64,000 nucleotides of DNA from Zygnema circumcarinatum SAG 698-1b. Taxonomy: Eukaryota > Plantae > Zygnematophyceae. Under the pieces are notes generated by a model. The model did not search any database, was not told the origin of the DNA, and saw only the letters and a list, made by a program, of their open reading frames with translations. The translations under genes and the position numbers were made by a program. Location: assembly GCA_037447605.1 (NCBI GenBank), contig CM074814.1, forward strand, positions 1,736,001-1,800,000, read 5' to 3'. Below are positions 5,901-64,000 of the stretch, one piece after another (positions within the stretch are counted from its first letter, which is position 1; the number at the start of each line of letters is the position of its first letter).

Positions 5901-8900
5901 CTTATCGACTACTAATTAAACAGCACATGTAGCATATACTCCACCTGCCAAGCTTACTACAGAACGTCCAAGCAACACATATGCCAGGTGGCAAAACGTT
6001 TTAGTTATCTTAGCAATCGCATTTATGATTTGAAGATAACATCAGTGAGCCATACACGCAAGAAGTCTACTTCTGAGAAAACCTCTATGTGCAAAATCTC
6101 CAGAAGAAAGTTCAACCGTGTTTACCTTCTGGACCTTTGGAACAAGCTGACTCATGACATCTGCTTTCATTCGACGAAGCACAAAAGGCCCCAAAATGCC
6201 TTTCACTCGCGCAATCAGATCACCTTTGGCCAAATTTCCAGCATCTGCTCGGCTGCCCAAATATTGACTGAGGTCATAGCCTTTCGTAGTAAAAATGGCC
6301 GGCATTAGGAATTCGAGAAGGGACCACAGCTCCTGCAGAAGTATGAGTGTCAACATATTGACGAGCGAAAGCCAGTTGGATTTGTTGAAAATCATGGCGA
6401 AAGTTCCCTTCGCTTTCCAGTGCGGAAGAAAAAGAAATAAGCTTGCGATGGCAGAGACGATGCACCATGACGCTCTATGAAGTTGATGACACTTAAGCAA
6501 CATCTCAGCTTACATAACAAACAAACACGGGTCCAGCAAGTTCGATATGGCTTGTTTTCCAGCATCTTCTAAGAAAGCATTCAACACAAAACCAAATGTT
6601 GACATTCATAAATACCTGAAGATCATTTTGCAAAGGAGTACCAGTTAGCATGATACGATGACGCGCAGTTCCAGCGATATCACGTAATTTCCGAGTGCGT
6701 GTAGCAGATCGGTCCTTGAGCAGATGTGCTTCATCCATCAAAACACAGGAGAATGGCCACTTACGAAGAAACTTTCTGTCATCTTTCTGTGCGGGACTAT
6801 TAACAGCCAGCACCACGATTGCTTGTTGTGAGAAGCTGCCAGAGAAGCGACACAATTGCTGAAATTCCAACAACCTATCCTGCTGAATGCAATCATGTGA
6901 GCGTTCACATGGCTCCACCCTTCCCAGCCTCGCTCAGGGAATCGTAAACTGTGGGGTGCAATCTTGCGCTCTTCCTGTTAATTATACTTCCATCTACAGG
7001 CCCTGTTGACTTCAAAAAATAACTAGGGACTCGAGGCATCCCAGCCTAAGGTATCCATGGATGTGTAAACCATCTTATTTCCGCCATCACTTGTTATCAC
7101 TGAACAAATGCACCACTGCTTTAAAAATAAAATAAAAACGGGTTGGTACATGGTACTTGGTAGTAGCATTGCGGATGGCAAGCACATAAGGCCTTACCTG
7201 TCGCGTTCAAAGAGGGAGTAGCAAGTCAACATGACATCAAAAGCCTTCTTTCGAGACGCTGCTGTACTGGAAAGCTCATGACGTATAGCGCTCCGCTCGG
7301 CACCATGATAAACGACCACACAAAGTGAAGGGCACCAGCGCTTCAGCTCCCGCTGCCAATTCTCCAACAAAGAAGCTGGTGCTACCACAAGATGTGGCCC
7401 TGGATCCTTGTCTATTTGAGCCAATAGAGCGAGAAAGGTGATGGCCTACGTCAATGAAATAGAAAACAGAGAAGGTTAACATTGCCACCTGGCATCAAAC
7501 ATTCAAATGCTTGGGTAACAGTGGACAAACGATAGAAGATTCTGTTTCAATAACAAACATTCCTTTCTCTAAAGGAAGCACAAAGGTCGATGCAACAGAG
7601 GATATAGTTTGTCTACCTGCACTGTCTTTCCAAGTCCCATTTCATCCGCCAGGATTGCTGCATAGTACCACAATGATATCGAGGTGTAAGCAATTTCGTT
7701 GGGAATGGATGGTATAGAACACTAACATTTAGGACCGAGACAAAAAGCCACTGACATTATTAGCAAGCACACACCAAGAAAAGAGATAGTCATTAAATTC
7801 AGGGAGCTGTGCATCAGGTACAAACCTCCTCCAACCTTCTGACGGTAGAGCAGAAGCAAGAAGTTGACCCCCACTAACTGATAAGGTTTCAACTCCACGC
7901 TGCCATGACCACATGCTCCGTCCACGTCCCTCTGCAGCGTAACCTCTACCTGAAGGTTAGAAAGATTTGACAAATCGTCTGTACCACATGGTTTTCACTT
8001 TGGACCACGATAAAAAGAAGCAAACTACACAACTGCAAGGACGCATGAGAACCACGAAGTGCACAACTAAAGTCTGTGCAGGCAAACACCGAGCGGGGGA
8101 GTATCTGCCAACCTGCGTGACGAGGCAACTCGGGGATGGGTTGATTTCTGAACAAAGATCCAAGCCTGTTGAGTCACTGCTAGAAATCGACGAAGACAAA
8201 ATTTCCTTCAAGTCGAGGGCAATTAACTCACACGTCCGCATAACTGCTTGTACTGGATCCAGCTCCTTGTCATTCACTTGATGTTGTAGCTCAGAAATCC
8301 GTGTGCGATCCCGAGATGATTTCAAGTTGCTTGGAACATTTTTACTCTGGGAATATGGGTTGCCATTAGTACCTAACACTTGGCTCAGTTTCTGAACGGT
8401 TCCATTGCCCCCAGGCTCTGTCGTATTTCTTGAGCGTGTCAAAGTGACTTTCATGGAAGCGTTTAAATACTTGTTATCTGCTGTTTCTTCCTCGTCACTA
8501 TCGTCAATAACTACTCTTCTCTTTGCTAATTTCACCTTCTTTGCTGCCCTTCCTAATGGCAAGCTGCTTTCAACTCCGTCGTCTTCTATGTCAGTGGAGC
8601 TTTTTGCTGCAACCTCAGACTCCGGTATCAATACGCCTATTGTGGGAATAGCACGTTGAACATCGCGAGTCCTCCCCTTTCTAGGTATTATTTCACCTCG
8701 AATGAACTTAGAATCAGGCTGACCATGACCGTTTGCCTCCTCTACGGCTTCTCTGCTTTCAGTAAACTTCCCCAAACAGTCTCCTCCAGAGAGCCGACTG
8801 ACGGCTACCCAGCCTTCAGCTTGCTTTGACGCTTGCTGATCATTGACCCCGCACCGACTTCCTCCAACATGCTTCACGGCAGCATCATGTGCAAAGCGAT

Positions 8901-48205: not shown

Positions 48206-49147
48206 CCTTCAATGGATTCAAAATTGTACGGTCGTACGTCTAGAGTTCTGGCCTTTTGGGTCCGGGCTTTTGGAAACAAAGCCGGCGCCACGTGGCATGT
48301 GACGTGTACCTACCATTCAAACATTATTGAAAACATGTTCAAATTGTGCTTCAAATTGTTGTGCTTTCTCCTTCGCTTTGTCACCGAACCACAGTCCAGC
48401 CAACAAACAAGCTTAGAGGGCTTGTGGGGCGTGTTTATGTGAAATAAAAAATGGAGAATGATACGCCCCCCCGTTTTTTTATATCCCGATATTTTTTTGC
48501 GAGAAAAAAATATCGCAAAAAATTATCGGCCTGCCTGAATCTGCTAAGTAGGACACGTGGCAGGCGGTGATTGGATTTCAGTTTTCCGCAGGCTGGCCGG
48601 TCCAGCTCATAGTTTTGCGGAGATCTCGGGCCGAGGGACGCTCGCAGTCGCACGTGCGAGCCTGACGGATCTTCCGCTCCAAGCGGATTCGGGCAGACCC
48701 AAACATATTTTTGTCTTTCAAAAGAAATTCAGGGGGGGGGGGGTTACTATTCTCCTAAAAAATGTGGTGTTTCATGACATCGGTGGTGGTGATGTTGTTG
48801 TTGTTGTTGCGCAAGTTATTGTTCATGAAGTTGTTGTTGTGCCGATTGCTGGAAATGTCGGTGGAAATGTCGGTCTCCTCATCCAACCTAAACATGTCGG
48901 CGCTAGCTGCAACTGTCGGTGGCCGCCCCAGGTCTCACCGCCAGAGAGGACGATACCAGAGATGCGCCAGGCGGTCTCACACGTGCGCGCGGCAGGCGTC
49001 GAGCTGTGGAGGTGGCTCCACGTGGCAGCGCGCCGTCCGTCCACGCCAGAGGAGCCAGCCGCAATCCTTATCGGCGGCTGGCGGAGGGGAGAGGAGGGGT
49101 CGCGCCCCCTCGCAGATCGCGGCGGGTGGGCCGTGACGGGGCTGAGG

Positions 49148-49365
49148 GGAGGGGAGGAGATCTGGGGTTGGGAGGGGAGGAGATCTGGGGTTGGGAGGGG
49201 AGGAGATCTGGGGTTGGGAGGGGAGGAGGAGATCTGGGGTTGGGAGGGGAGGAGATCTGGGGTTGGGAGGGGAGGAGATCTGGGGTTGGGAGGGGAGGAG
49301 ATCTGGGGTTGGGAGGGGAGGAGATCTGGGGTTGGGAGGGGAGGAGATCTGGGGTTGGGAGGGGA
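49148..49365 (+). repeat. 23-bp G-rich minisatellite, ~9 copies
   Basis: Unit GGGGAGGAGATCTGGGGTTGGGA in tandem; one copy has an extra GGA. Confidence 0.9.
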
Positions 49366-49857
49366 GAGGGAGAGGGAGAAGGGAGAGGGGACTGAGGGGA
49401 TGGAAGGGTAGGGGCGCGGGGCGGGCAGGGCAGGGCGCGGCATGGCATGGCATGAGGGCATGGATGGGGCCGCTCTGTGGGGGGCTGCGTGTGCGCCGAG
49501 GATGGCGGGAGTCAGGGGAGGGGGAGTGGAGGGGAGGGGAGGACTCAGGGGATGGGAGGAAGGGGAGAGGAGAGGGGACTCAGGGGAGGGGTGGACTAAG
49601 GGCGCGACACGGCATGGCATGGCATTGGGTTATGGGGGATGGGGTTATGGGGAGGGCGCTCTGCGGGTTCGTGCGTTTGCGCCGAGGATGGAGGAGTGCT
49701 CTCTCGAACTTTGCTTTTTCTATTTGCTTTTGGTCGTCGTCGTCGTGCTCGTGTTTACTTTTCTTTGCATTGGCACTTTTTCGGACCTTGTTGTGAAGAC
49801 GATGCTTGCGTGGAGGCGGTCAGCGTGTTAGAGCAGTGATGAGGATGAGAGATGAAG

Positions 49858-49930
49858 ATGAGTGTAGCTCCACTGGGAGAGCAGCGGTTCTGTTAACCGA
49901 AGGTTGAGGGTTCGAATCCCTCCACTCAAA
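49858..49930 (+). pseudogene. tRNA-Asn(GTT)-like relic or tRNA-derived SINE head
   Basis: Acceptor TGAGTG/CACTCA, D stem GCTC/GAGC, T arm GAGGG-TTCGAAT-CCCTC and CT-GTT-AA are present, but the anticodon stem is out of register for a 7-nt loop. Confidence 0.55.
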
Positions 49931-51060
49931 TCACGCCACCTCTGTCATTGCCATACATCTTTGATCTTGTTGGTGCATGCGTGCATGCAGGATGGGTCAG
50001 GTGATGTCATTTTCCGGCTAGAAAGTCCATGGTTATGCAACACCATTTTGCGCTTTGCCATGATCTGTCGGCTTTGTGGGGCGGATGAGTGTGCTTGCAA
50101 TCTTGGGTATGTTCATCTACTTTGTTTCTTTTCTTCTTTCTTTCTTTCTTGCTTGAAACATTTATAGTCATGTTAAAAGGACTCAGCGGTTGCCGTTGTG
50201 TGCACTGTAGTGCATGGTTGCGTGCTGCGTTCCATGGGACTTCATAGAACCGCCGGCTAGTGATGCGGTTAGACTTGTATGGGATCGATGTCGCTCGCAC
50301 GCTGTGCCATGCCATGCTGAGGCAGAGAAACTTAGGCGACGCGTGTGGGCCATTCGATTGTAGGATGCATAGTGTCGCAGGTCGCACAAAGGGGTGTTAC
50401 GTGGCGTTTGCGTGGCGATGCCACATCAGTACCACAACGGTGAGGCGATTCGTTGCGCCAATTAGGTAGAAATCGTACTTTGCAACCTCTTTTTTTTGCC
50501 CCTTTCCATGCGCTAAAATCTGTTGAACCAAAAGGTTTAGCGGAACGTTACACATGACACTAATATTTCACAATCAAAATTTCACTTTATTTTTTAAAGT
50601 AGATTTAATTTCCAAAATTTTCATTTTTATTGCCTCTAGTAGAGTTCTAGCTAAAAATTTGTTATGTCATGCAATAATTGGTGGTTTTGGCCCTTAAGAA
50701 AAAAATTGCTTGGAATTTTTTTTGTCTTTCTTGGACATTTTTTAACTGATTGTAATAAAATTTGATTTCTAGTTATTGGTTGGTTTTTTAGCATCCTCAA
50801 TATGATAGTAATTCTTGAATTGTTGGTGGGTGTATTTAGAGTATTTTGTCGTGTGTTAAAGTTTTTGCCGTGTTTGCTGATGTGGTGTTGTTGTGGACTT
50901 GGTAACGACTAAAGCGTGTTGCCATTGGTGGAGAGTGATGGAAGCGTGTCTCTATTGGTGGAGAGTGATGCGGGCCTCTAAAGGTGAGAAGGTACTTGTT
51001 GCTACTTTTGTTTTTCATTTTCTTTCTTTTTTTTCAACCCTAGGCAAGAGAGGATACTCA

Positions 51061-52080
51061 ATGAAAAGGAAAGCAGAAGGAAGTAGGGAAGAAGGGAGAC
51101 AAATGGAGAAGAAAACAAAAGTTGAAAAAGTTGAAGAGAAAGAGCCACAAAGAACAATACGTAAGTATTTAGGAGTACGAAAGTGGAAACATTGCTGGTC
51201 TGCAGGAATTAGGGTTCCAGCAGGGTTTGGGACAGAGGGCTGGTCTTCGGGACATAAGGTTCCAGCAGAGTTTTGTAAAGACGGGGAGAAAGGAAAGCGC
51301 CTTTGGCTTGGATCGTATGACAGTGCAGAAAAGGCAGCTCATGCATATGATGTGGCTGCCCGAGCTATAAAAGGATCGCTTGTTTGGACAAATTTTCCAG
51401 AGGAAGGAGTTTCTGTGGTGTATAAGGGCAGAGGAGGAGCAGTGTTGAGTGAGGGTGTCGACAATGCAAGATATAGAGACGAATTTAAGGCTTTGTTAAA
51501 TTCTTGCAAGAAGAGGCGAAGACGGAGTTCGCATAGAAAGGCCGGTGGAAGCAAGGTAGAGGTAGAGAAGGTAGAGATTCAGGTACTCGGTGAAAATTTT
51601 GACGAGCTAAAGAAGCTGGAGAAGGTGAATGTTAAGGTGGAGAAGGTAGAGATTAAAGTGCTTGGTGAAAGTTTTGACAAGCTAAAGAAGCTAAAGGAAG
51701 TGAAGGTTGAGGTGGTGAAGGAGAGGGGGAGGGAGAGGGAGAGTGTACAGGATACGAGTGAGAAATCGGTGTGTTTGGAATACGGCGTCTCGAGCTTGTC
51801 AGAGTGGGAGCATCGCCAAAGCTTGTCTGAGGAGGGACCCCTCTGGGAACTTTCGAGCAGTGAAGATTTTGGGGAACTGATGCGATGTGAGATGTCAAGC
51901 GATCCTTTCCGCAAGCTTCCGGAGGTGGATGAGAGCTGCCTCGGATTCATGACGGAAATCGACGACATTCTGCACCTCGACGGCTGGGGTGAAGACTTTT
52001 GGGATACTTCATCGAAATTCCCTGAGTTAAAGATTTTTAAATCCACTTTTGTGAGCTTAAGTTTCCTGTTCAACTTATGA
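51061..52080 (+). CDS. Intronless AP2/ERF-domain protein with a divergent, internally duplicated AP2 domain (ORF open from 50893; likely ATG at 51061)
   Basis: KYLGVRKWKHCWSAGIRVP...KRLWLGSYDSAEKAAHAYDVAARAIKGSLVWTNFP; basic RRRR stretch; acidic C-terminus. Confidence 0.8.
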   Translation: MKRKAEGSREEGRQMEKKTKVEKVEEKEPQRTIRKYLGVRKWKHCWSAGIRVPAGFGTEGWSSGHKVPAEFCKDGEKGKRLWLGSYDSAEKAAHAYDVAARAIKGSLVWTNFPEEGVSVVYKGRGGAVLSEGVDNARYRDEFKALLNSCKKRRRRSSHRKAGGSKVEVEKVEIQVLGENFDELKKLEKVNVKVEKVEIKVLGESFDKLKKLKEVKVEVVKERGRERESVQDTSEKSVCLEYGVSSLSEWEHRQSLSEEGPLWELSSSEDFGELMRCEMSSDPFRKLPEVDESCLGFMTEIDDILHLDGWGEDFWDTSSKFPELKIFKSTFVSLSFLFNL

Positions 52081-54753: not shown

Positions 54754-57548
54754 TAAAAGTTTCCGCACAAACAAAATAATAAGAAAAACAAATGAAGTCC
54801 TTGCAAAGCAGCGCTGGCTTTCCCCTGGTCTACTTTTCGATATATTAGAACATCGAGCTGACAAGAAGTACAACAATTGACTTTCTATCCCATTAGTTGA
54901 TCACAGCTCTCAATGAACATACCTCGCCCTCCTTTCCCTGAGCGCAGCACGTTGTCGAGAAATCCCCGCAACAAAGGTCTCTCGCCATTTAACATAGCTT
55001 GCAGTTCTGCCCCTTAGACATGTGCAGCTGTCATCCTTCCCTCGTCAACAAAAACGACTAAAACAAGGAAAGTGGCGTGGGGGTGGTAGAGGGAGTGGAA
55101 AAGACAACGGGAAGAGTGGGAGAGAGAGCGAGAGTGGGAAAGAGACGCCGGCTTGTCTATGAGCTCTACTTTTTAAGACAATCCTCCAAGCTGGCACATC
55201 TAACTGCCTCAATGCGAAACATAGAACCCCCTTCCCTCTCCCCGCTCCCCCTCCTCTCTCTCTCTCTCCCTCACTCCCCATATATCTCTCCCTTTCTCCT
55301 TCGCTTCTACATTAGCCATTTCCCTCGCACTTCCCACTCTCCCTTCTTCTCTCACCAGCCAGAGACTCCCTATCCATTCCCTCTCGTCCTCCCCTTTCTC
55401 CACACACATCAAAACCAAACCATGACAATTTCCATAACCCTGAAACCTACAAGCCCTAAGAGCATTCCACCCTAATGTTCCCCCCTCTCTCCCACTGTCC
55501 CTACTCTCACCCTGCCGGTGTCATATGCAACACGGTGTCGTATCTCCCTCCTCCTCTCCATGGTAGCCTACACCATCTCTCTCTCACCGAAAATCCGAAC
55601 CCTCTCCCTCCCCCTTCCCCAGCATAACTCTGCTGATATCCTCCTCCTTGCCCGTATTGAGCACCGCTCTGTCCATACCTGTAATTACTACCACTCTCAC
55701 TACCACTACCACTACTACTACTACCAGTACCAGTACTACTGCTATCACTACCACTGCTGCTATTGCTCGTTCTGCTCTGCTGTTGGCAGTGGCCAAGTGG
55801 CAGCTGTACGACCTCCCTCTCTATTGTACTGCGCTCGGCGGCTATCATCACTACAAACCTGCGGCATGTAAATGGCTATGCTGAATGCTTGAGATCGAAT
55901 AGAGATAAAAATCAAAATGGAAGTAAATTCATATCAGTACCTTCTGTGCCATCTATCTGTTCATGAACAATACGAACTGATGCATGGAAATGAATGCTCG
56001 TTTCCAAAAAGCTATCACTTTTTAACAGAAGTTACAATGTTCTGTATGGTCTTTTTATTCTTCTTTAAATTTTCAAGTTACAATATACGATAAGATTACC
56101 TCATACGCTTCTGCTAACTCTTTGAATCGCGCTCCAATTTTTCCCAAAACCGCTCATCTCCGTGCATGTGTCGGTCCGGGTGCCATTGGAGTGCTAGCTG
56201 GCGAAATGCTGTCTGTTGAAAGCCAACTTAAAAAAAGAAATTTAAAGGTGAAACTAAACGGAGATAACTGTTAACAATTATGCAAATTGTAATGCCAAGT
56301 TTTAGACACAAATAGGACCCGTGATTTATTTGAAATTGATGCTTTCCTATTTAACACTATTTACGCTCAGAAAATACCCCACTTGTTCAGCAAAATGCGA
56401 GTCTATACACTATCGCTTTCCTCTCCTCTCCCTCTCGCTCTCCCTCTACCCCTATCTCTCTCTCTCGCTCTCGCTCTCGCTCTCTCTCTCTCCCTCTCCC
56501 TTGTTCAGCAACATGCGAGCTCCTTCNNNNNNNNNNCTCCCCCCTCCCCCCTCTCCCCGTCCCCCTCCCCCTCTCCATATCCCTCTCCCTCTCTCCCTCT
56601 CTCTCACTCTCTTTCAATTCTTCTTCGATCTGTACACGCATGCCTACCACATGTCCGATCCCCTGCCTCCCACAGCTTGATCTCTTGAGAGGTCGCCTCG
56701 CGCTTCACCCCCAGCACGCGGTAGTATTCCATGGAGAGGCAGAGCAGCGAGGGAAACAGGGAGAGGCAGAGCGAGGGGGACAGGGAGAGACAGTGGAAGG
56801 GAAAGGGCGAGGGCGAGGGAGAGAGCGGGAGAATGAGAGAAGGGAAGATATAAGATACCGGCAGACGACGAGAGATAAAGGAGGAGACAGCGGGGAAGGG
56901 AGAAGGCAGGCCCTCAAGGGTAGGGCGGCAGCCATGGCTGCAGGAAGCTTGCCGCGCGGACGCTCAAAGGGACGCCTCACGAGAGGCGGAGTGGGAGCAA
57001 CCAAGGCGTGACGTAACTTGACGTGACGAGACGCTACTATGTGACGTTCTGTGACGTCCTTTAAATATATGACCAATAAACGCTCGCCATGTGGTCGTGA
57101 TTTGACTCTGACCTTTACCGGCGGTCACCGCGGTCGATGGCTGAGAGCCAGCGTGGCAATCGTATCCTATGTGGCAGAAGTGTGTTCACGTGACGTCTAC
57201 CGATTGGATAATTTAAAAGAGAGAGAAAAAGAGAGTTTAAAAATGATGCATACGTGGCTGCCACGTGGGCGACTCGTCGGCAAACCGCGCCATGGAACCC
57301 GTGAACGCGTCGTGCGGAACCCTTTTTCGCTCCATAGAGCCTGTAGATTTTTGCGCCCATGCCATGCCATACATGGGCCAAAAGCGGGTTTCGTTGACTC
57401 TTTCCATGTACATCAGTTCCAGTTCCCGTGAGAATTGCACGTTTTTTTTGTAACCGGATCTAGTTACCGCCGGAGTCCTCGCACATGGAACCGTTTTCCT
57501 GCTTGGTCCAAAAGTACCCGTCGGCCTGAAAGGGCTCCCTTGGTCCCC

Positions 57549-58286
57549 TTAGGACTTGGCACGAGTTAGAAGCATGCCAAAATTGCGTTCTTTTCGTGGA
57601 GTTGTTAGTAAGAACTCGAGCAAGTTCGAATGAACTGACGAATTAAACGAGCTTTGCAAGGCGTTAAGTCCGCGCACGAGGACTTGTCCGGGCGCGCACA
57701 AAGCGTAGCCGTTAGAGCCCATAATCCAGGCGCGTAAGACTTTGGTGCGTGAACCAAAGGTCAAACCCAGAACGCGCTCTTGTTCATTTAAGAGAGTGTT
57801 CAAGCGCCCTGTGTTAGCACAAGGAACACGTAGGATAGCGCCGTCCGTGTTTGCTTGCAGGATGTCGGAACAGGATGAGAGCGATTTGAGCACCTCCAAA
57901 AGGATTAGCTGCCCATTTATGGTGATGCTATAGTACAGCTTAGGATTGTAAAGCAAAGAACCAGAAGCATTCAAATTGCCAACAATCGAAAGCAGAAGCA
58001 CTTTGTATGTGATTGATCGTCTCCGAAGCTCAATCTCGGGTGAAGCTTTCCACTTCAAGCGCAAGTCCCGCCATTCGCCTAGCTTGGCCAATAAGCGCTT
58101 AGCATAGTCTTGTGAAGAACCGATTATGTGGAATTCGGAGCCCTTCTGCAACAACTGAATAAGCAGTTCAATAGAAAACGCGGTAATGTCGATATGAAAA
58201 ATAGCATTCTCTGTATCGCTTTCAAACTCAACAATAGCCTGCTTGTTTCTGTGGATAGAGTGCAGCCCACCTAGCCCTACCTTGAA
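57549..58286 (-). CDS. Phage-type PolB copy truncated at its 3' end (..TRAKS*) by the junction with flanking DNA; 5' end in gap
   Basis: Same sequence as the N-terminal part of the full copies; stop TAA is created at the junction 57549-57551. Confidence 0.7.
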   Translation of the reverse strand, partial: FKVGLGGLHSIHRNKQAIVEFESDTENAIFHIDITAFSIELLIQLLQKGSEFHIIGSSQDYAKRLLAKLGEWRDLRLKWKASPEIELRRRSITYKVLLLSIVGNLNASGSLLYNPKLYYSITINGQLILLEVLKSLSSCSDILQANTDGAILRVPCANTGRLNTLLNEQERVLGLTFGSRTKVLRAWIMGSNGYALCAPGQVLVRGLNALQSSFNSSVHSNLLEFLLTTPRKERNFGMLLTRAKS

Positions 58287-58298
58287 TNNNNNNNNNNA

Positions 58299-59411
58299 TT
58301 CAAGGTAGGGCTAGGTGGGCTGCACTCTATCCACAGAAACAAGCAGGCTATTGTTGAGTTTGAAAGCGATACAGAGAATGCTATTTTTCATATCGACATT
58401 ACCGCGTTTTCTATTGAACTGCTTATTCAGTTGTTGCAGAAGGGCTCCGAATTCCACATAATCGGTTCTTCACAAGACTATGCTAAGCGCTTATTGGCCA
58501 AGCTAGGCGAATGGCGGGACTTGCGCTTGAAGTGGAAAGCTTCACCCGAGATTGAGCTTCGGAGACGATCAATCACATACAAAGTGCTTCTGCTTTCGAT
58601 TGTTGGCAATTTGAATGCTTCTGGTTCTTTGCTTTACAATCCTAAGCTGTACTATAGCATCACCATAAATGGGCAGCTAATCCTTTTGGAGGTGCTCAAA
58701 TCGCTCTCATCCTGTTCCGACATCCTGCAAGCAAACACGGACGGCGCTATCCTACGTGTTCCTTGTGCTAACACAGGGCGCTTGAACACTCTCTTAAATG
58801 AACAAGAGCGCGTTCTGGGTTTGACCTTTGGTTCACGCACCAAAGTCTTACGCGCCTGGATTATGGGCTCTAACGGCTACGCTTTGTGCGCGCCCGGACA
58901 AGTCCTCGTGCGCGGACTTAACGCCTTGCAAAGCTCGTTTAATTCGTCAGTTCATTCGAACTTGCTCGAGTTCTTACTAACAACTCCACGAAAAGAACGC
59001 AATTTTGGCATGCTTCTAACTCGTGCCAAGTCCTATCGCAAGTTTTGGGAGTTTGCCTGTGCAAAACGCAGCGCGAGCGAGTTGCCAGTGGTTTACATGT
59101 GTACGCTAGCGCACCGGGATGACATTGTTGTCCTTGAAAAGAGCGGAAAAGGCAAATTCCTTTGTTTGGTTTCCAAAGGCTCGCCCTTGGGTAGAGTAGA
59201 ATATTTCAAGTACATCTCAACTCAGTACGACTTCAAAAGGCGAGAAATTGAGTATGAGAACACTTTGCTCAATTCGGTGCCGTGGCGTTGCGTGGAGGCG
59301 AAGCGCAAATACAAACAGAAGTATACTGCAGACTACCCGCTTGAATCGCAAGAGTCTTTGAGGAAGTTTCTCGAGTTGCTTGAAGATAGGGACAGCTGCG
59401 CAAGGGTCTAA
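58299..59411 (+). CDS. Divergent family B DNA polymerase, tailed-phage (crAss-like) type, polymerase domain; 5' end lost in gap (at least 370 aa)
   Basis: Frame is open back to the gap: FKVGLGGLHS..HIDITAFSIELL (motif A region), YKVLLLSIVGNL (motif B region), LLYNPKLYYSITINGQLILL, ILQANTDG (motif C); intronless. Confidence 0.8.
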   Translation, partial: FKVGLGGLHSIHRNKQAIVEFESDTENAIFHIDITAFSIELLIQLLQKGSEFHIIGSSQDYAKRLLAKLGEWRDLRLKWKASPEIELRRRSITYKVLLLSIVGNLNASGSLLYNPKLYYSITINGQLILLEVLKSLSSCSDILQANTDGAILRVPCANTGRLNTLLNEQERVLGLTFGSRTKVLRAWIMGSNGYALCAPGQVLVRGLNALQSSFNSSVHSNLLEFLLTTPRKERNFGMLLTRAKSYRKFWEFACAKRSASELPVVYMCTLAHRDDIVVLEKSGKGKFLCLVSKGSPLGRVEYFKYISTQYDFKRREIEYENTLLNSVPWRCVEAKRKYKQKYTADYPLESQESLRKFLELLEDRDSCARV

Positions 59412-59770
59412 CGTTCAAGGAAGAGAAGCATGGAGCAGTCGTCTCGAGTCGCGAACTTGCTCTTGATGACAGCGGTGTTAAAGCAGTGCTCACGATGCGC
59501 ACTTAAGGGCGAGGTTTTGCTCGTAAATAGAAAGCTTCGGAGCTTGTGGACTTTCTCAATAGGCACGGGATTCGGGAATACACGCATGGCAAGTGTTCGA
59601 CTAGGATTGACAGCAACTATTGTAAGAACCAGACGCAACAAGGTGTCGCTCCGGGGAGTTTTCCGCTTACGGCTGACGTATTTATGGTTCTCACCCTTTT
59701 CACTGAGTTGGACGCTGGCTTTGAACCAGAGCGGATTTAGTACAGAGTTTATAGAAACGCTTCCAGCCAT
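59408..59770 (-). CDS. Hypothetical 120-aa basic protein convergent with PolB (mirror copy 59987-60349 on +)
   Basis: ATG at 59770 just inside the hairpin; its TAG (59408-59410) overlaps the PolB TAA (59409-59411); no family recognised. Confidence 0.4.
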   Translation of the reverse strand: MAGSVSINSVLNPLWFKASVQLSEKGENHKYVSRKRKTPRSDTLLRLVLTIVAVNPSRTLAMRVFPNPVPIEKVHKLRSFLFTSKTSPLSAHREHCFNTAVIKSKFATRDDCSMLLFLER

Positions 59771-59771
59771 G

Positions 59772-59985
59772 AGGGCGACCAGAGGGCGACCATAGGGAGC
59801 TCGCGCGGCGCTCACTGCGTTCGCTTGTTTCACCGTGAGCTTCGCGAACAGGCGACCGAAGGGTGACGAAGTCACAGGCGACCGTTCGCTCGCGCGGCGC
59901 TCACTGCGTTCGCTTGTTTCACGGTGAAACAAGCGAACGCAGTGAGCGCCGCGCGAGCTCCCTATGGTCGCCCTCTGGTCGCCCT
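59772..59985. repeat. Imperfect GC-rich hairpin junction between inverted arms
   Basis: 80-bp asymmetric spacer 59839-59918 with GTGAC-GAA-GTCAC mini-hairpin; 35-bp segment repeated to form a local perfect hairpin 59888-59958; repeated GGCGACC motifs. Confidence 0.8.
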
Positions 59986-60345
59986 CATGGCTGGAAGCGT
60001 TTCTATAAACTCTGTACTAAATCCGCTCTGGTTCAAAGCCAGCGTCCAACTCAGTGAAAAGGGTGAGAACCATAAATACGTCAGCCGTAAGCGGAAAACT
60101 CCCCGGAGCGACACCTTGTTGCGTCTGGTTCTTACAATAGTTGCTGTCAATCCTAGTCGAACACTTGCCATGCGTGTATTCCCGAATCCCGTGCCTATTG
60201 AGAAAGTCCACAAGCTCCGAAGCTTTCTATTTACGAGCAAAACCTCGCCCTTAAGTGCGCATCGTGAGCACTGCTTTAACACCGCTGTCATCAAGAGCAA
60301 GTTCGCGACTCGAGACGACTGCTCCATGCTTCTCTTCCTTGAACG

Positions 60346-61458
60346 TTAGACCCTTGCGCAGCTGTCCCTATCTTCAAGCAACTCGAGAAACTTCCTCAAA
60401 GACTCTTGCGATTCAAGCGGGTAGTCTGCAGTATACTTCTGTTTGTATTTGCGCTTCGCCTCCACGCAACGCCACGGCACCGAATTGAGCAAAGTGTTCT
60501 CATACTCAATTTCTCGCCTTTTGAAGTCGTACTGAGTTGAGATGTACTTGAAATATTCTACTCTACCCAAGGGCGAGCCTTTGGAAACCAAACAAAGGAA
60601 TTTGCCTTTTCCGCTCTTTTCAAGGACAACAATGTCATCCCGGTGCGCTAGCGTACACATGTAAACCACTGGCAACTCGCTCGCGCTGCGTTTTGCACAG
60701 GCAAACTCCCAAAACTTGCGATAGGACTTGGCACGAGTTAGAAGCATGCCAAAATTGCGTTCTTTTCGTGGAGTTGTTAGTAAGAACTCGAGCAAGTTCG
60801 AATGAACTGACGAATTAAACGAGCTTTGCAAGGCGTTAAGTCCGCGCACGAGGACTTGTCCGGGCGCGCACAAAGCGTAGCCGTTAGAGCCCATAATCCA
60901 GGCGCGTAAGACTTTGGTGCGTGAACCAAAGGTCAAACCCAGAACGCGCTCTTGTTCATTTAAGAGAGTGTTCAAGCGCCCTGTGTTAGCACAAGGAACA
61001 CGTAGGATAGCGCCGTCCGTGTTTGCTTGCAGGATGTCGGAACAGGATGAGAGCGATTTGAGCACCTCCAAAAGGATTAGCTGCCCATTTATGGTGATGC
61101 TATAGTACAGCTTAGGATTGTAAAGCAAAGAACCAGAAGCATTCAAATTGCCAACAATCGAAAGCAGAAGCACTTTGTATGTGATTGATCGTCTCCGAAG
61201 CTCAATCTCGGGTGAAGCTTTCCACTTCAAGCGCAAGTCCCGCCATTCGCCTAGCTTGGCCAATAAGCGCTTAGCATAGTCTTGTGAAGAACCGATTATG
61301 TGGAATTCGGAGCCCTTCTGCAACAACTGAATAAGCAGTTCAATAGAAAACGCGGTAATGTCGATATGAAAAATAGCATTCTCTGTATCGCTTTCAAACT
61401 CAACAATAGCCTGCTTGTTTCTGTGGATAGAGTGCAGCCCACCTAGCCCTACCTTGAA
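60346..61458 (-). CDS. Phage-type PolB, inverted identical copy; 5' end in gap
   Basis: Identical translation to 58299-59411. Confidence 0.8.
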   Translation of the reverse strand, partial: FKVGLGGLHSIHRNKQAIVEFESDTENAIFHIDITAFSIELLIQLLQKGSEFHIIGSSQDYAKRLLAKLGEWRDLRLKWKASPEIELRRRSITYKVLLLSIVGNLNASGSLLYNPKLYYSITINGQLILLEVLKSLSSCSDILQANTDGAILRVPCANTGRLNTLLNEQERVLGLTFGSRTKVLRAWIMGSNGYALCAPGQVLVRGLNALQSSFNSSVHSNLLEFLLTTPRKERNFGMLLTRAKSYRKFWEFACAKRSASELPVVYMCTLAHRDDIVVLEKSGKGKFLCLVSKGSPLGRVEYFKYISTQYDFKRREIEYENTLLNSVPWRCVEAKRKYKQKYTADYPLESQESLRKFLELLEDRDSCARV

Positions 61459-61470
61459 TNNNNNNNNNNA

Positions 61471-62583
61471 TTCAAGGTAGGGCTAGGTGGGCTGCACTCT
61501 ATCCACAGAAACAAGCAGGCTATTGTTGAGTTTGAAAGCGATACAGAGAATGCTATTTTTCATATCGACATTACCGCGTTTTCTATTGAACTGCTTATTC
61601 AGTTGTTGCAGAAGGGCTCCGAATTCCACATAATCGGTTCTTCACAAGACTATGCTAAGCGCTTATTGGCCAAGCTAGGCGAATGGCGGGACTTGCGCTT
61701 GAAGTGGAAAGCTTCACCCGAGATTGAGCTTCGGAGACGATCAATCACATACAAAGTGCTTCTGCTTTCGATTGTTGGCAATTTGAATGCTTCTGGTTCT
61801 TTGCTTTACAATCCTAAGCTGTACTATAGCATCACCATAAATGGGCAGCTAATCCTTTTGGAGGTGCTCAAATCGCTCTCATCCTGTTCCGACATCCTGC
61901 AAGCAAACACGGACGGCGCTATCCTACGTGTTCCTTGTGCTAACACAGGGCGCTTGAACACTCTCTTAAATGAACAAGAGCGCGTTCTGGGTTTGACCTT
62001 TGGTTCACGCACCAAAGTCTTACGCGCCTGGATTATGGGCTCTAACGGCTACGCTTTGTGCGCGCCCGGACAAGTCCTCGTGCGCGGACTTAACGCCTTG
62101 CAAAGCTCGTTTAATTCGTCAGTTCATTCGAACTTGCTCGAGTTCTTACTAACAACTCCACGAAAAGAACGCAATTTTGGCATGCTTCTAACTCGTGCCA
62201 AGTCCTATCGCAAGTTTTGGGAGTTTGCCTGTGCAAAACGCAGCGCGAGCGAGTTGCCAGTGGTTTACATGTGTACGCTAGCGCACCGGGATGACATTGT
62301 TGTCCTTGAAAAGAGCGGAAAAGGCAAATTCCTTTGTTTGGTTTCCAAAGGCTCGCCCTTGGGTAGAGTAGAATATTTCAAGTACATCTCAACTCAGTAC
62401 GACTTCAAAAGGCGAGAAATTGAGTATGAGAACACTTTGCTCAATTCGGTGCCGTGGCGTTGCGTGGAGGCGAAGCGCAAATACAAACAGAAGTATACTG
62501 CAGACTACCCGCTTGAATCGCAAGAGTCTTTGAGGAAGTTTCTCGAGTTGCTTGAAGATAGGGACAGCTGCGCAAGGGTCTAA
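61471..62583 (+). CDS. Phage-type PolB, identical copy; 5' end in gap
   Basis: Identical translation to 58299-59411. Confidence 0.8.
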   Translation, partial: FKVGLGGLHSIHRNKQAIVEFESDTENAIFHIDITAFSIELLIQLLQKGSEFHIIGSSQDYAKRLLAKLGEWRDLRLKWKASPEIELRRRSITYKVLLLSIVGNLNASGSLLYNPKLYYSITINGQLILLEVLKSLSSCSDILQANTDGAILRVPCANTGRLNTLLNEQERVLGLTFGSRTKVLRAWIMGSNGYALCAPGQVLVRGLNALQSSFNSSVHSNLLEFLLTTPRKERNFGMLLTRAKSYRKFWEFACAKRSASELPVVYMCTLAHRDDIVVLEKSGKGKFLCLVSKGSPLGRVEYFKYISTQYDFKRREIEYENTLLNSVPWRCVEAKRKYKQKYTADYPLESQESLRKFLELLEDRDSCARV

Positions 62584-62942
62584 CGTTCAAGGAAGAGAAG
62601 CATGGAGCAGTCGTCTCGAGTCGCGAACTTGCTCTTGATGACAGCGGTGTTAAAGCAGTGCTCACGATGCGCACTTAAGGGCGAGGTTTTGCTCGTAAAT
62701 AGAAAGCTTCGGAGCTTGTGGACTTTCTCAATAGGCACGGGATTCGGGAATACACGCATGGCAAGTGTTCGACTAGGATTGACAGCAACTATTGTAAGAA
62801 CCAGACGCAACAAGGTGTCGCTCCGGGGAGTTTTCCGCTTACGGCTGACGTATTTATGGTTCTCACCCTTTTCACTGAGTTGGACGCTGGCTTTGAACCA
62901 GAGCGGATTTAGTACAGAGTTTATAGAAACGCTTCCAGCCAT
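62580..62942 (-). CDS. Hypothetical 120-aa protein, second unit (mirror copy 63159-63521 on +)
   Basis: Identical to 59408-59770. Confidence 0.4.
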   Translation of the reverse strand: MAGSVSINSVLNPLWFKASVQLSEKGENHKYVSRKRKTPRSDTLLRLVLTIVAVNPSRTLAMRVFPNPVPIEKVHKLRSFLFTSKTSPLSAHREHCFNTAVIKSKFATRDDCSMLLFLER

Positions 62943-62943
62943 G

Positions 62944-63157
62944 AGGGCGACCAGAGGGCGACCATAGGGAGCTCGCGCGGCGCTCACTGCGTTCGCTTGT
63001 TTCACCGTGAGCTTCGCGAACAGGCGACCGAAGGGTGACGAAGTCACAGGCGACCGTTCGCTCGCGCGGCGCTCACTGCGTTCGCTTGTTTCACGGTGAA
63101 ACAAGCGAACGCAGTGAGCGCCGCGCGAGCTCCCTATGGTCGCCCTCTGGTCGCCCT
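62944..63157. repeat. Second hairpin junction, same orientation as the first
   Basis: Sequence identical to 59772-59985 at offset 3172. Confidence 0.8.
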
Positions 63158-63517
63158 CATGGCTGGAAGCGTTTCTATAAACTCTGTACTAAATCCGCTC
63201 TGGTTCAAAGCCAGCGTCCAACTCAGTGAAAAGGGTGAGAACCATAAATACGTCAGCCGTAAGCGGAAAACTCCCCGGAGCGACACCTTGTTGCGTCTGG
63301 TTCTTACAATAGTTGCTGTCAATCCTAGTCGAACACTTGCCATGCGTGTATTCCCGAATCCCGTGCCTATTGAGAAAGTCCACAAGCTCCGAAGCTTTCT
63401 ATTTACGAGCAAAACCTCGCCCTTAAGTGCGCATCGTGAGCACTGCTTTAACACCGCTGTCATCAAGAGCAAGTTCGCGACTCGAGACGACTGCTCCATG
63501 CTTCTCTTCCTTGAACG

Positions 63518-64000
63518 TTAGACCCTTGCGCAGCTGTCCCTATCTTCAAGCAACTCGAGAAACTTCCTCAAAGACTCTTGCGATTCAAGCGGGTAGTCTG
63601 CAGTATACTTCTGTTTGTATTTGCGCTTCGCCTCCACGCAACGCCACGGCACCGAATTGAGCAAAGTGTTCTCATACTCAATTTCTCGCCTTTTGAAGTC
63701 GTACTGAGTTGAGATGTACTTGAAATATTCTACTCTACCCAAGGGCGAGCCTTTGGAAACCAAACAAAGGAATTTGCCTTTTCCGCTCTTTTCAAGGACA
63801 ACAATGTCATCCCGGTGCGCTAGCGTACACATGTAAACCACTGGCAACTCGCTCGCGCTGCGTTTTGCACAGGCAAACTCCCAAAACTTGCGATAGGACT
63901 TGGCACGAGTTAGAAGCATGCCAAAATTGCGTTCTTTTCGTGGAGTTGTTAGTAAGAACTCGAGCAAGTTCGAATGAACTGACGAATTAAACGAGCTTTG
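63518..64000 (-). CDS. Phage-type PolB, inverted copy running off the window end
   Basis: C-terminal part identical to the other copies. Confidence 0.75.
   Translation of the reverse strand, partial: QSSFNSSVHSNLLEFLLTTPRKERNFGMLLTRAKSYRKFWEFACAKRSASELPVVYMCTLAHRDDIVVLEKSGKGKFLCLVSKGSPLGRVEYFKYISTQYDFKRREIEYENTLLNSVPWRCVEAKRKYKQKYTADYPLESQESLRKFLELLEDRDSCARV

Follow-up and report, generated by a model that had tools for sequence, protein, structure and literature searches.

An open, chimeric family B DNA polymerase frame on palindromic DNA in the assembly of Zygnema circumcarinatum SAG 698-1b

Palindromic units and the open frame

The final 6.5 kb of the window (the whole 64,000-nt stretch analysed) is a zig-zag of one 1.55-kb unit. 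The same reading frame, for part of a family B DNA polymerase (PolB), occurs about 4.5 times in the window, in inverted copies that are 99-100% identical. The features of this region, in window coordinates, are the following.

56537-57549, no strand: flank between two N gaps; the listed contigs cover 56620-57512
57550-58287, minus strand: partial mirror copy with codons 1-246 of the frame, abutting the flank at 57549/57550
58288-58297, no strand: gap of 10 N, the exact palindrome centre
58298-59849, plus strand: unit copy that carries the frame described here
58299-59411, plus strand: open PolB frame, 370 codons and TAA, covering the palm, fingers and thumb start of a family B polymerase
58395-58415, plus strand: motif A, D-I-T-A-F-S-I, with D at 58395-58397 and S at 58410-58412
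58581-58607, plus strand: motif B, K-V-L-L-L-S-I-V-G, with Lys and Gly kept, Leu for Asn and Val for Tyr
58734-58745, plus strand: motif C, N-T-D-G, which lies beyond the span 58299-58700 given in the initial annotation
59412-59740, plus strand: decayed piPolB-type C-terminal continuation, following the TAA at 59409-59411
59799-59958, no strand: palindrome turnaround, X-M-S-M-g-M'-X' in the layout of the assembly and not a simple hairpin centre
59908-61459, minus strand: mirror unit copy, 100% identical, with the frame at 60346-61458 on the minus strand
61460-61469, no strand: second gap of 10 N, between unit copies, also a palindrome centre
61470-63021, plus strand: third full unit copy, followed by a second identical turnaround
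63080-64000, minus strand: further mirror copy, running off the window end

The arms 57550-58292 and 58293-59035 form a perfect palindrome around the first N gap. At the turnaround, a 35-nt module M occurs three times: at 59799-59833, at 59888-59922 and, in reverse complement, at 59924-59958. A 54-nt spacer S occupies 59834-59887. Module M had no match in IMG/VR, and the terminal 186 nt folded no better than shuffled sequences (z -0.23).

The frame is stop-free over 58299-59408 on the plus strand, and the initial annotation was right in describing it as uninterrupted for 370 codons. Its upstream extension of the ORF did not hold, however: the extension runs into the 10-N gap at 58288-58297, at the centre of the perfect palindrome, and the frame is therefore a fragment. 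In relatives, about 255-290 residues with the Exo I-III motifs lie ahead of the point where the frame starts. No N-terminal or 3'-5' exonuclease domain (Exo I-III) is present in the 64-kb window or in P0002, the public form of the frame (397 aa, UniRef/NCBI nr), whose residue numbering is followed here. P0002 has 27 N-terminal residues more than the window frame; these align to residues 274-300 of P0021, a PolB of 1760 aa, and are not encoded anywhere in the window. No P0002 form that was longer (696-2000 aa) or shorter (30-217 aa) was found. The exonuclease domain could lie in the 620-2073 nt by which short-read contigs continue upstream (see below).

Three other features were seen elsewhere in the window. 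An ORF at 50881-52080 (plus strand) gave a weak AP2 match (E 8e-6, below the Pfam cut-off) and resembles a plant ERF domain by inspection (WLGSYDSAEKAAHAYD...NFP), which hints that the host is of the green lineage. A tRNA gene at 49858-49930 (plus strand; RF00005, 45.8 bits) is the sole Rfam match in the window. Region 48548-49796 consists of GC-rich tandem repeats with long repetitive frames on both strands (GEEIWGWEGRRSGVGRGGDLGLG units).

Fold, motif register and a clade with Leu in motif B

The frame matched the PHROG family phrog_1252, 'DNA polymerase' (E 8e-19), and an exhaustive phmmer search gave 631 homologues at E<=0.001. It matched no family in Pfam, nothing in NCBIfam and nothing significant in a PDB sequence search. 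An AlphaFold2 model built from 47 sequences (mean pLDDT 72.5, pTM 0.72) reached a pLDDT of at least 88 per 10-residue block at residues 21-70 and 91-230, and of 77-82 at 71-90. All the PDB matches listed by Foldseek were family B polymerases (probability 1.00, E about 1e-6). The window frame thus has the palm/fingers core of a family B polymerase. The fold and the catalytic aspartates of the domain are present; the steric-gate Tyr and the KxxxNSxYG motif are not.

The register of the motifs was examined in a MAFFT alignment of 166 sequences, made up of P0002 and 165 phmmer hits and cluster members; of the 167 proteins other than P0001, one had no phmmer match and was left out. D60, K122, G130 and N173-T174-D175 are preserved in P0002, and the motifs sit gap-free between invariant flanking columns. 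In the model, D60 ends the strand 54-61, K122-G130 lies within the long fingers helix 112-131, and the NTD residues are on the beta hairpin 168-173/176-182. The alignment and the model agree, so that the reading and its register hold, and a different register restoring Tyr and Asn was looked for and not found. The letters of motifs A, B and C were confirmed in both translation and alignment as first reported. A one-residue shift placing Phe64 at the gate, suggested by comparison with the 'GAYS' of piPolBs, was rejected since the alignment is gap-free.

The statement that both catalytic aspartates are kept is correct if it is taken to mean the motif A Asp and the single Asp of NTDG. D60 and D175 are invariant columns and are both retained in P0002, and the first Asp of a canonical motif C is Asn throughout the PolB family of the frame. 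According to the part of PMC7544198 used here, piPolBs also lack the first Asp of motif C and nevertheless polymerize efficiently. Twenty of the 23 columns conserved at >=85% among the other 165 homologues are retained in P0002, with GGLHS, TxNGQL, NTDG and the motif B Lys among the elements kept. The three losses are S63 to Ala, Y65 to Ser and K232 to Arg, all of them changes private to P0002. This number is inside the family range (median 1, maximum 4 losses per sequence).

The Ser at the steric gate that was claimed initially is real, and it proved to be unique in the alignment: Tyr65 is Tyr in 165/165 homologues and Ser in the window frame (1/166 overall). Codons 65 (TCT vs TAT) and 63 (GCG vs TCG) each differ by a single base from a codon that specifies the residue of the clade. 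In B-family polymerases this Tyr clashes with the 2'-OH of ribonucleotides, as described in the sections consulted of PMC10639073 and PMC5695915.

Motif B gave a different picture. In a FastTree phylogeny of 162 non-identical sequences and 197 columns (rows of <70% occupancy and exact duplicates removed), P0002 fell in a clade of 24 sequences with a support of 0.89, three of which came from one 90% cluster. The Asn site of motif B is Leu in all 24 members, and the Tyr site is Thr in 19, Ser in 3, Pro in 1 and Val in 1, the last being the window frame, so that the clade hallmark reads Lys-x-x-x-Leu-Ser-x-Thr/Val-Gly. The Pro of motif A is likewise replaced, by Val, Ile or Thr, across the whole clade, but the steric-gate Tyr is retained in the other 23 members. 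The window frame therefore belongs to this Leu-clade, as we define it here, by its placement, its Leu and its non-aromatic residue at the Tyr site. The Asn to Leu and Tyr to Val changes behind the earlier term 'rewritten' are thus real but are not private to this gene; as all 24 sequences share the change, it says nothing special about the window frame.

Full-length clade members have 575-1470 aa, and Exo I-III are all intact in nine of the 16 longer members examined, several of the others being cut at the N-terminus. Long members are found on contigs of 3-7 kb (e.g. 1203 aa on 3753 nt), and short fragments on contigs of 56-138 kb. One member, P0061, is annotated as 'putative DNA polymerase of type B [Treubaria triappendiculata]' under a RefSeq YP_ accession, a type that we take to mark an organelle record, and is hence presumably a green-algal organelle protein.

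The sister group (P0021, P0023, P0025, P0027 and P0040) has kept the motif B Asn (support 0.97). Two of its proteins, P0021 and P0025 (1994 aa), are fusions of the PolB core with a DEAD-like helicase region; both have lost Exo I-III and have canonical motifs A, B and C. The pocket has been rewritten a second time, independently, in three metagenome PolBs on contigs of 44-92 kb (P0003, P0004 and the 602-aa P0035), which have lost Exo I (TLSL for DxE) and carry KxxxTSxIG as motif B and NTDE as motif C.

Chimeric C-terminus, copy number and the scaffold join

The C-terminal part of P0002 is of another origin. BLASTP similarity to the PolB P0021 covers residues 2-225 (35% identity), likeness to PolBs stops at about residue 225-285, and confident structure extends to ~272. 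Similarity to the piPolB-type P0170 was detected by BLASTP at residues 315-384 only (44%). The switch to a piPolB-type C-terminal module is placed at about residue 273-283, that is, from ~59037-59064 of the window onward. The last third of the frame, together with the decayed tail, is 39-53% identical to the C-terminal module of P0026, P0058, P0125 and P0160/P0170, which carry W-K-T-R-G and T-T-D-G. Pfam PF03175 is matched by P0058 and P0160. P0058 and P0160/P0170 are on contigs of 2.7-3.7 kb and P0026 on contigs of up to 29 kb, and P0170 is 23-28% identical to polymerases of small Staphylococcus and Fusobacterium plasmids. Since the join is spanned by single contigs in two runs (X6, 58784-59052; X7, 58787-59385), the chimera is real DNA. 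The breakpoint of the left partial copy, 59035/59036 (mirrored at 57549/57550), coincides with the end of the confidently modelled PolB part at residue ~272-273, about 30 nt ahead of the first piPolB-type similarity.

The tail at 59412-59740 follows the TAA with a frameshift near 59510-59515, a TAG at 59528-59530 in place of the Tyr of homologues, and a terminal TAG at 59738-59740. Reassignment of a stop codon was rejected: one internal stop is TAA and the other TAG, they are separated by a frameshift, and neither codon occurs among the 397 open ones. Other piPolB-type genes that resemble this tail, and that have likewise decayed and carry stops in frame, were seen in another public record, at L081 (342-2388) and L082 (4634-5389). 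Decay with stops, raised at the outset as a possible objection, is accordingly borne out by the frame's own 3' tail and by the L081 copies, but not by the 370-codon frame, which is free of stops. The 397 open codons hold no disruption and the next ~110 hold three. By our arithmetic, such clustering has a p of about 0.01 if disruptions fall evenly over ~507 homologous codons, and of only 0.125 if the comparison is restricted to the piPolB-derived part. The former value is a hint that the open part is, or once was, under selection.

Copy number was estimated from Logan short-read contigs aligned to the window; as these are contigs and not reads, the depths are approximate, and X1 to X5 may be source data of the assembly itself. 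The depths were as follows, with the flank taken at 56620-57512.

X1: unit 9205; flank 25.6 and 51.9
X4: unit about 6100-6800
X6: unit 5047; flank 22 and 29.2
X7: unit 5.8-7.4; flank 5.66
X8: unit about 4.2; flank without cover

The unit is thus roughly 100-350 times as deep as the flank in X1 and X6 and about equal to it in X7. The near-flank depth in X7 and X8 is a poor fit with an organelle DNA of constitutively high copy number. X1, X4 and X6 have the same unit sequence, from which X7 differs by one non-synonymous change. Contigs extend beyond 58299 by 845 nt (X1), 620 nt (X4), 2073 nt (X6) and 657 nt (X7); because those of all four runs continue, the centre of the N gap is not a real end. 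At the other end of the unit, 59757-59907 collects thousands of contigs (2778 in X1), many of them M-spacer-M variants. The summed depth at 59811-59864 is up to 4.4 million in X1, and that of the module M region is 11,000 in X7. Depths as high as these show that module M is common to far more DNA than one unit.

The junction with the scaffold is where a nuclear origin can be judged. If the frame were a PolB fragment that had been domesticated as a nuclear gene at this place, the inverted copies would be a true palindromic amplification of the chromosome. The unit does adjoin scaffold sequence at nuclear depth, it has about single-copy depth in X7 and X8, and a protein model exists in the databases (P0002). 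Yet junction 57549/57550 is bridged by none of the listed contigs of four runs, and contigs from either side continue into other sequence: in X1, X6, X7 and X8 a unit contig passes 57550 into the unit's own sequence (the reverse complement of ...YRKFWEFACAK), and in X6 a contig from the flank side diverges from the window into other sequence at 57551. Two of the palindrome centres are N gaps past which real DNA continues, and the excess depth in X1 and X6 also argues against a chromosomal locus. We consider this explanation very unlikely. The unit probably belongs to a DNA of high copy number, 3.6 kb or more in length, and its join to the scaffold is probably an error.

The unsupported join, and a PolB part whose nearest relatives are phage-type polymerases, would also suit contamination by phage or bacterial DNA, or a pure artefact of sequencing, that was placed on a eukaryotic scaffold by the assembly. 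Against this, 20 listed runs from 8 studies contain the unit. All of them carry the same organism label, and no RNA run is listed among them. The clade pattern and the piPolB-type C-terminal module are both absent from 185,579 prokaryote genomes. The module was not found in IMG/VR either, and the clade motif B occurs in none of the best 80 IMG/VR loci, all 80 being canonical. One clade member, P0061, presumably comes from a green-algal organelle. Contamination or artefact is therefore extremely unlikely.

Interpretation and comparison with known systems

Taken together, these features make it somewhat more probable than otherwise that the frame is the open middle of a chimeric PolB gene, a decaying remnant on a high-copy, probably extrachromosomal hairpin-ended DNA, and not a working replicase. 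The sequence of events may have been as follows. A plasmid-type PolB gene of the Leu-clade would have lost, or parted from, its 5' half, recombined with a piPolB-type gene and then lost the reading frame of that tail, and it would have picked up a handful of point substitutions, Tyr to Ser (TAT to TCT) among them. High copy of the carrier DNA would be maintained by other means, with enzymes of the host or of other elements copying it. It may be a linear molecule that folds back at its M-module end, as the turnaround in the assembly suggests; read-through sequences would then be perfect palindromes ending at the shear point. Such a DNA would be an organelle DNA or a plasmid in a eukaryote of the green lineage, and the polymerase frame may still be open since constraint was lost recently. 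Counting against the remnant reading are the 20 of 23 conserved columns still kept, both catalytic Asp included, the clustering of all three disruptions beyond the open codons, the unit's occurrence in 20 runs from 8 studies with a nearly constant sequence, its near-flank depth in X7 and X8, and the upstream DNA, which could hold an exonuclease domain.

The same conserved positions could instead point to a working polymerase core, perhaps the replicase of the element, in which the gate Ser and the Leu/Val motif B would relax sugar selection and allow use of rNTPs or priming-like synthesis. The two aspartates, the motif B Lys, GGLHS, TxNGQL and NTDG would all be in place for it, 397 codons have stayed open beside a decayed tail, a high-copy DNA needs a replicase, and clade relatives with the same motif B retain Exo I-III and so look functional. 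The known clash of the Tyr with the ribonucleotide 2'-OH, in the parts drawn on of PMC10639073 and PMC5695915, would also agree with a relaxed gate. Nevertheless, neither the window nor P0002 holds an exonuclease or N-terminal domain, and from about residue 273-283 onward a foreign module, itself truncated, takes the place of the thumb. Loss of a Tyr that is invariant in 165/165 relatives more often marks lost function, and those private changes whose codons were read are single base changes each. A working core is for these reasons rather unlikely. The more specific proposal, in which the core with the Ser gate and the Leu/Val motif B would tolerate ribonucleotides or prime itself as the replicase of a hairpin-ended, high-copy mini-replicon in a green-lineage eukaryote, seems quite improbable.

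Between the two outcomes first proposed for the frame, an enzyme of altered specificity or a repurposed inactive polymerase, the inactive or repurposed one is the better fit, given a frame that is both truncated and chimeric. The 20 of 23 columns and the unique Tyr to Ser change speak for altered specificity.

Among known systems, the phage PolBs of PHROG 1252 (crAss-like and others, with NTDG) have the palm/fingers core, GGLHS, TxNGQL and NTDG in common with the window frame, at a tblastn identity of 22-32%. They differ in their length of 600-650 aa, their exonuclease domain, SFYP in motif A and KxxxN[SG]xYG in motif B. The crAss-like PolB group is described in the text seen of PMC7544198 as profoundly different in MotifC and KxY. 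The Leu-clade members have the Leu motif B of the window frame and differ by the Tyr gate (the other 23) and, in full-length members, by Exo I-III.

KTRG is a hallmark of piPolBs, which also occur on single-gene circular mitochondrial plasmids, according to the excerpts available of PMC5695915. The C-terminal module of piPolBs, from pipolins and circular mitochondrial plasmids, resembles the last third of the frame and its tail. The core of the frame is nevertheless not a piPolB: it is without KTRG, MAFFT setting the KTRG columns against only the T-R of the window's TRAKS, and its BLASTP similarity to P0170 is confined to residues 315-384. The dpoB of the Oedogonium chloroplast is likewise a foreign PolB from a mobile element or plasmid in a green-algal organelle, the organelle setting being a probable one in the case of the window unit (PMC2442088, in the sections consulted). 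By the same sections, dpoB differs in being closest to the kalilo linear plasmid, which belongs to another PolB group, and they contain nothing on motif B, hairpins or high copy number.

Plasmid-origin PolB remnants in organelle settings (PMC2442088) and the steric-gate role of the Tyr (PMC10639073, PMC5695915) are thus already known from the portions of these papers used here. Our literature search, together with passages of PMC7544198, returned no description of the Leu-clade motif B, of a natural gate Ser or of a chimeric high-copy palindromic DNA.

Three points hold whatever the fate of the window frame. First, a clade of PolBs that look competent for proofreading has swapped the Asn and Tyr of motif B that contact the incoming nucleotide. 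Second, PolB pieces of two unrelated lineages are combined on a small DNA (3.6 kb or more), which stands at about 100-350 times the flank in some samples and about equal to it elsewhere, in one organism. Third, an assembly that includes such DNA acquires perfect palindromes and false joins, and from these come 'genes' in public protein sets, as in the case of P0002.
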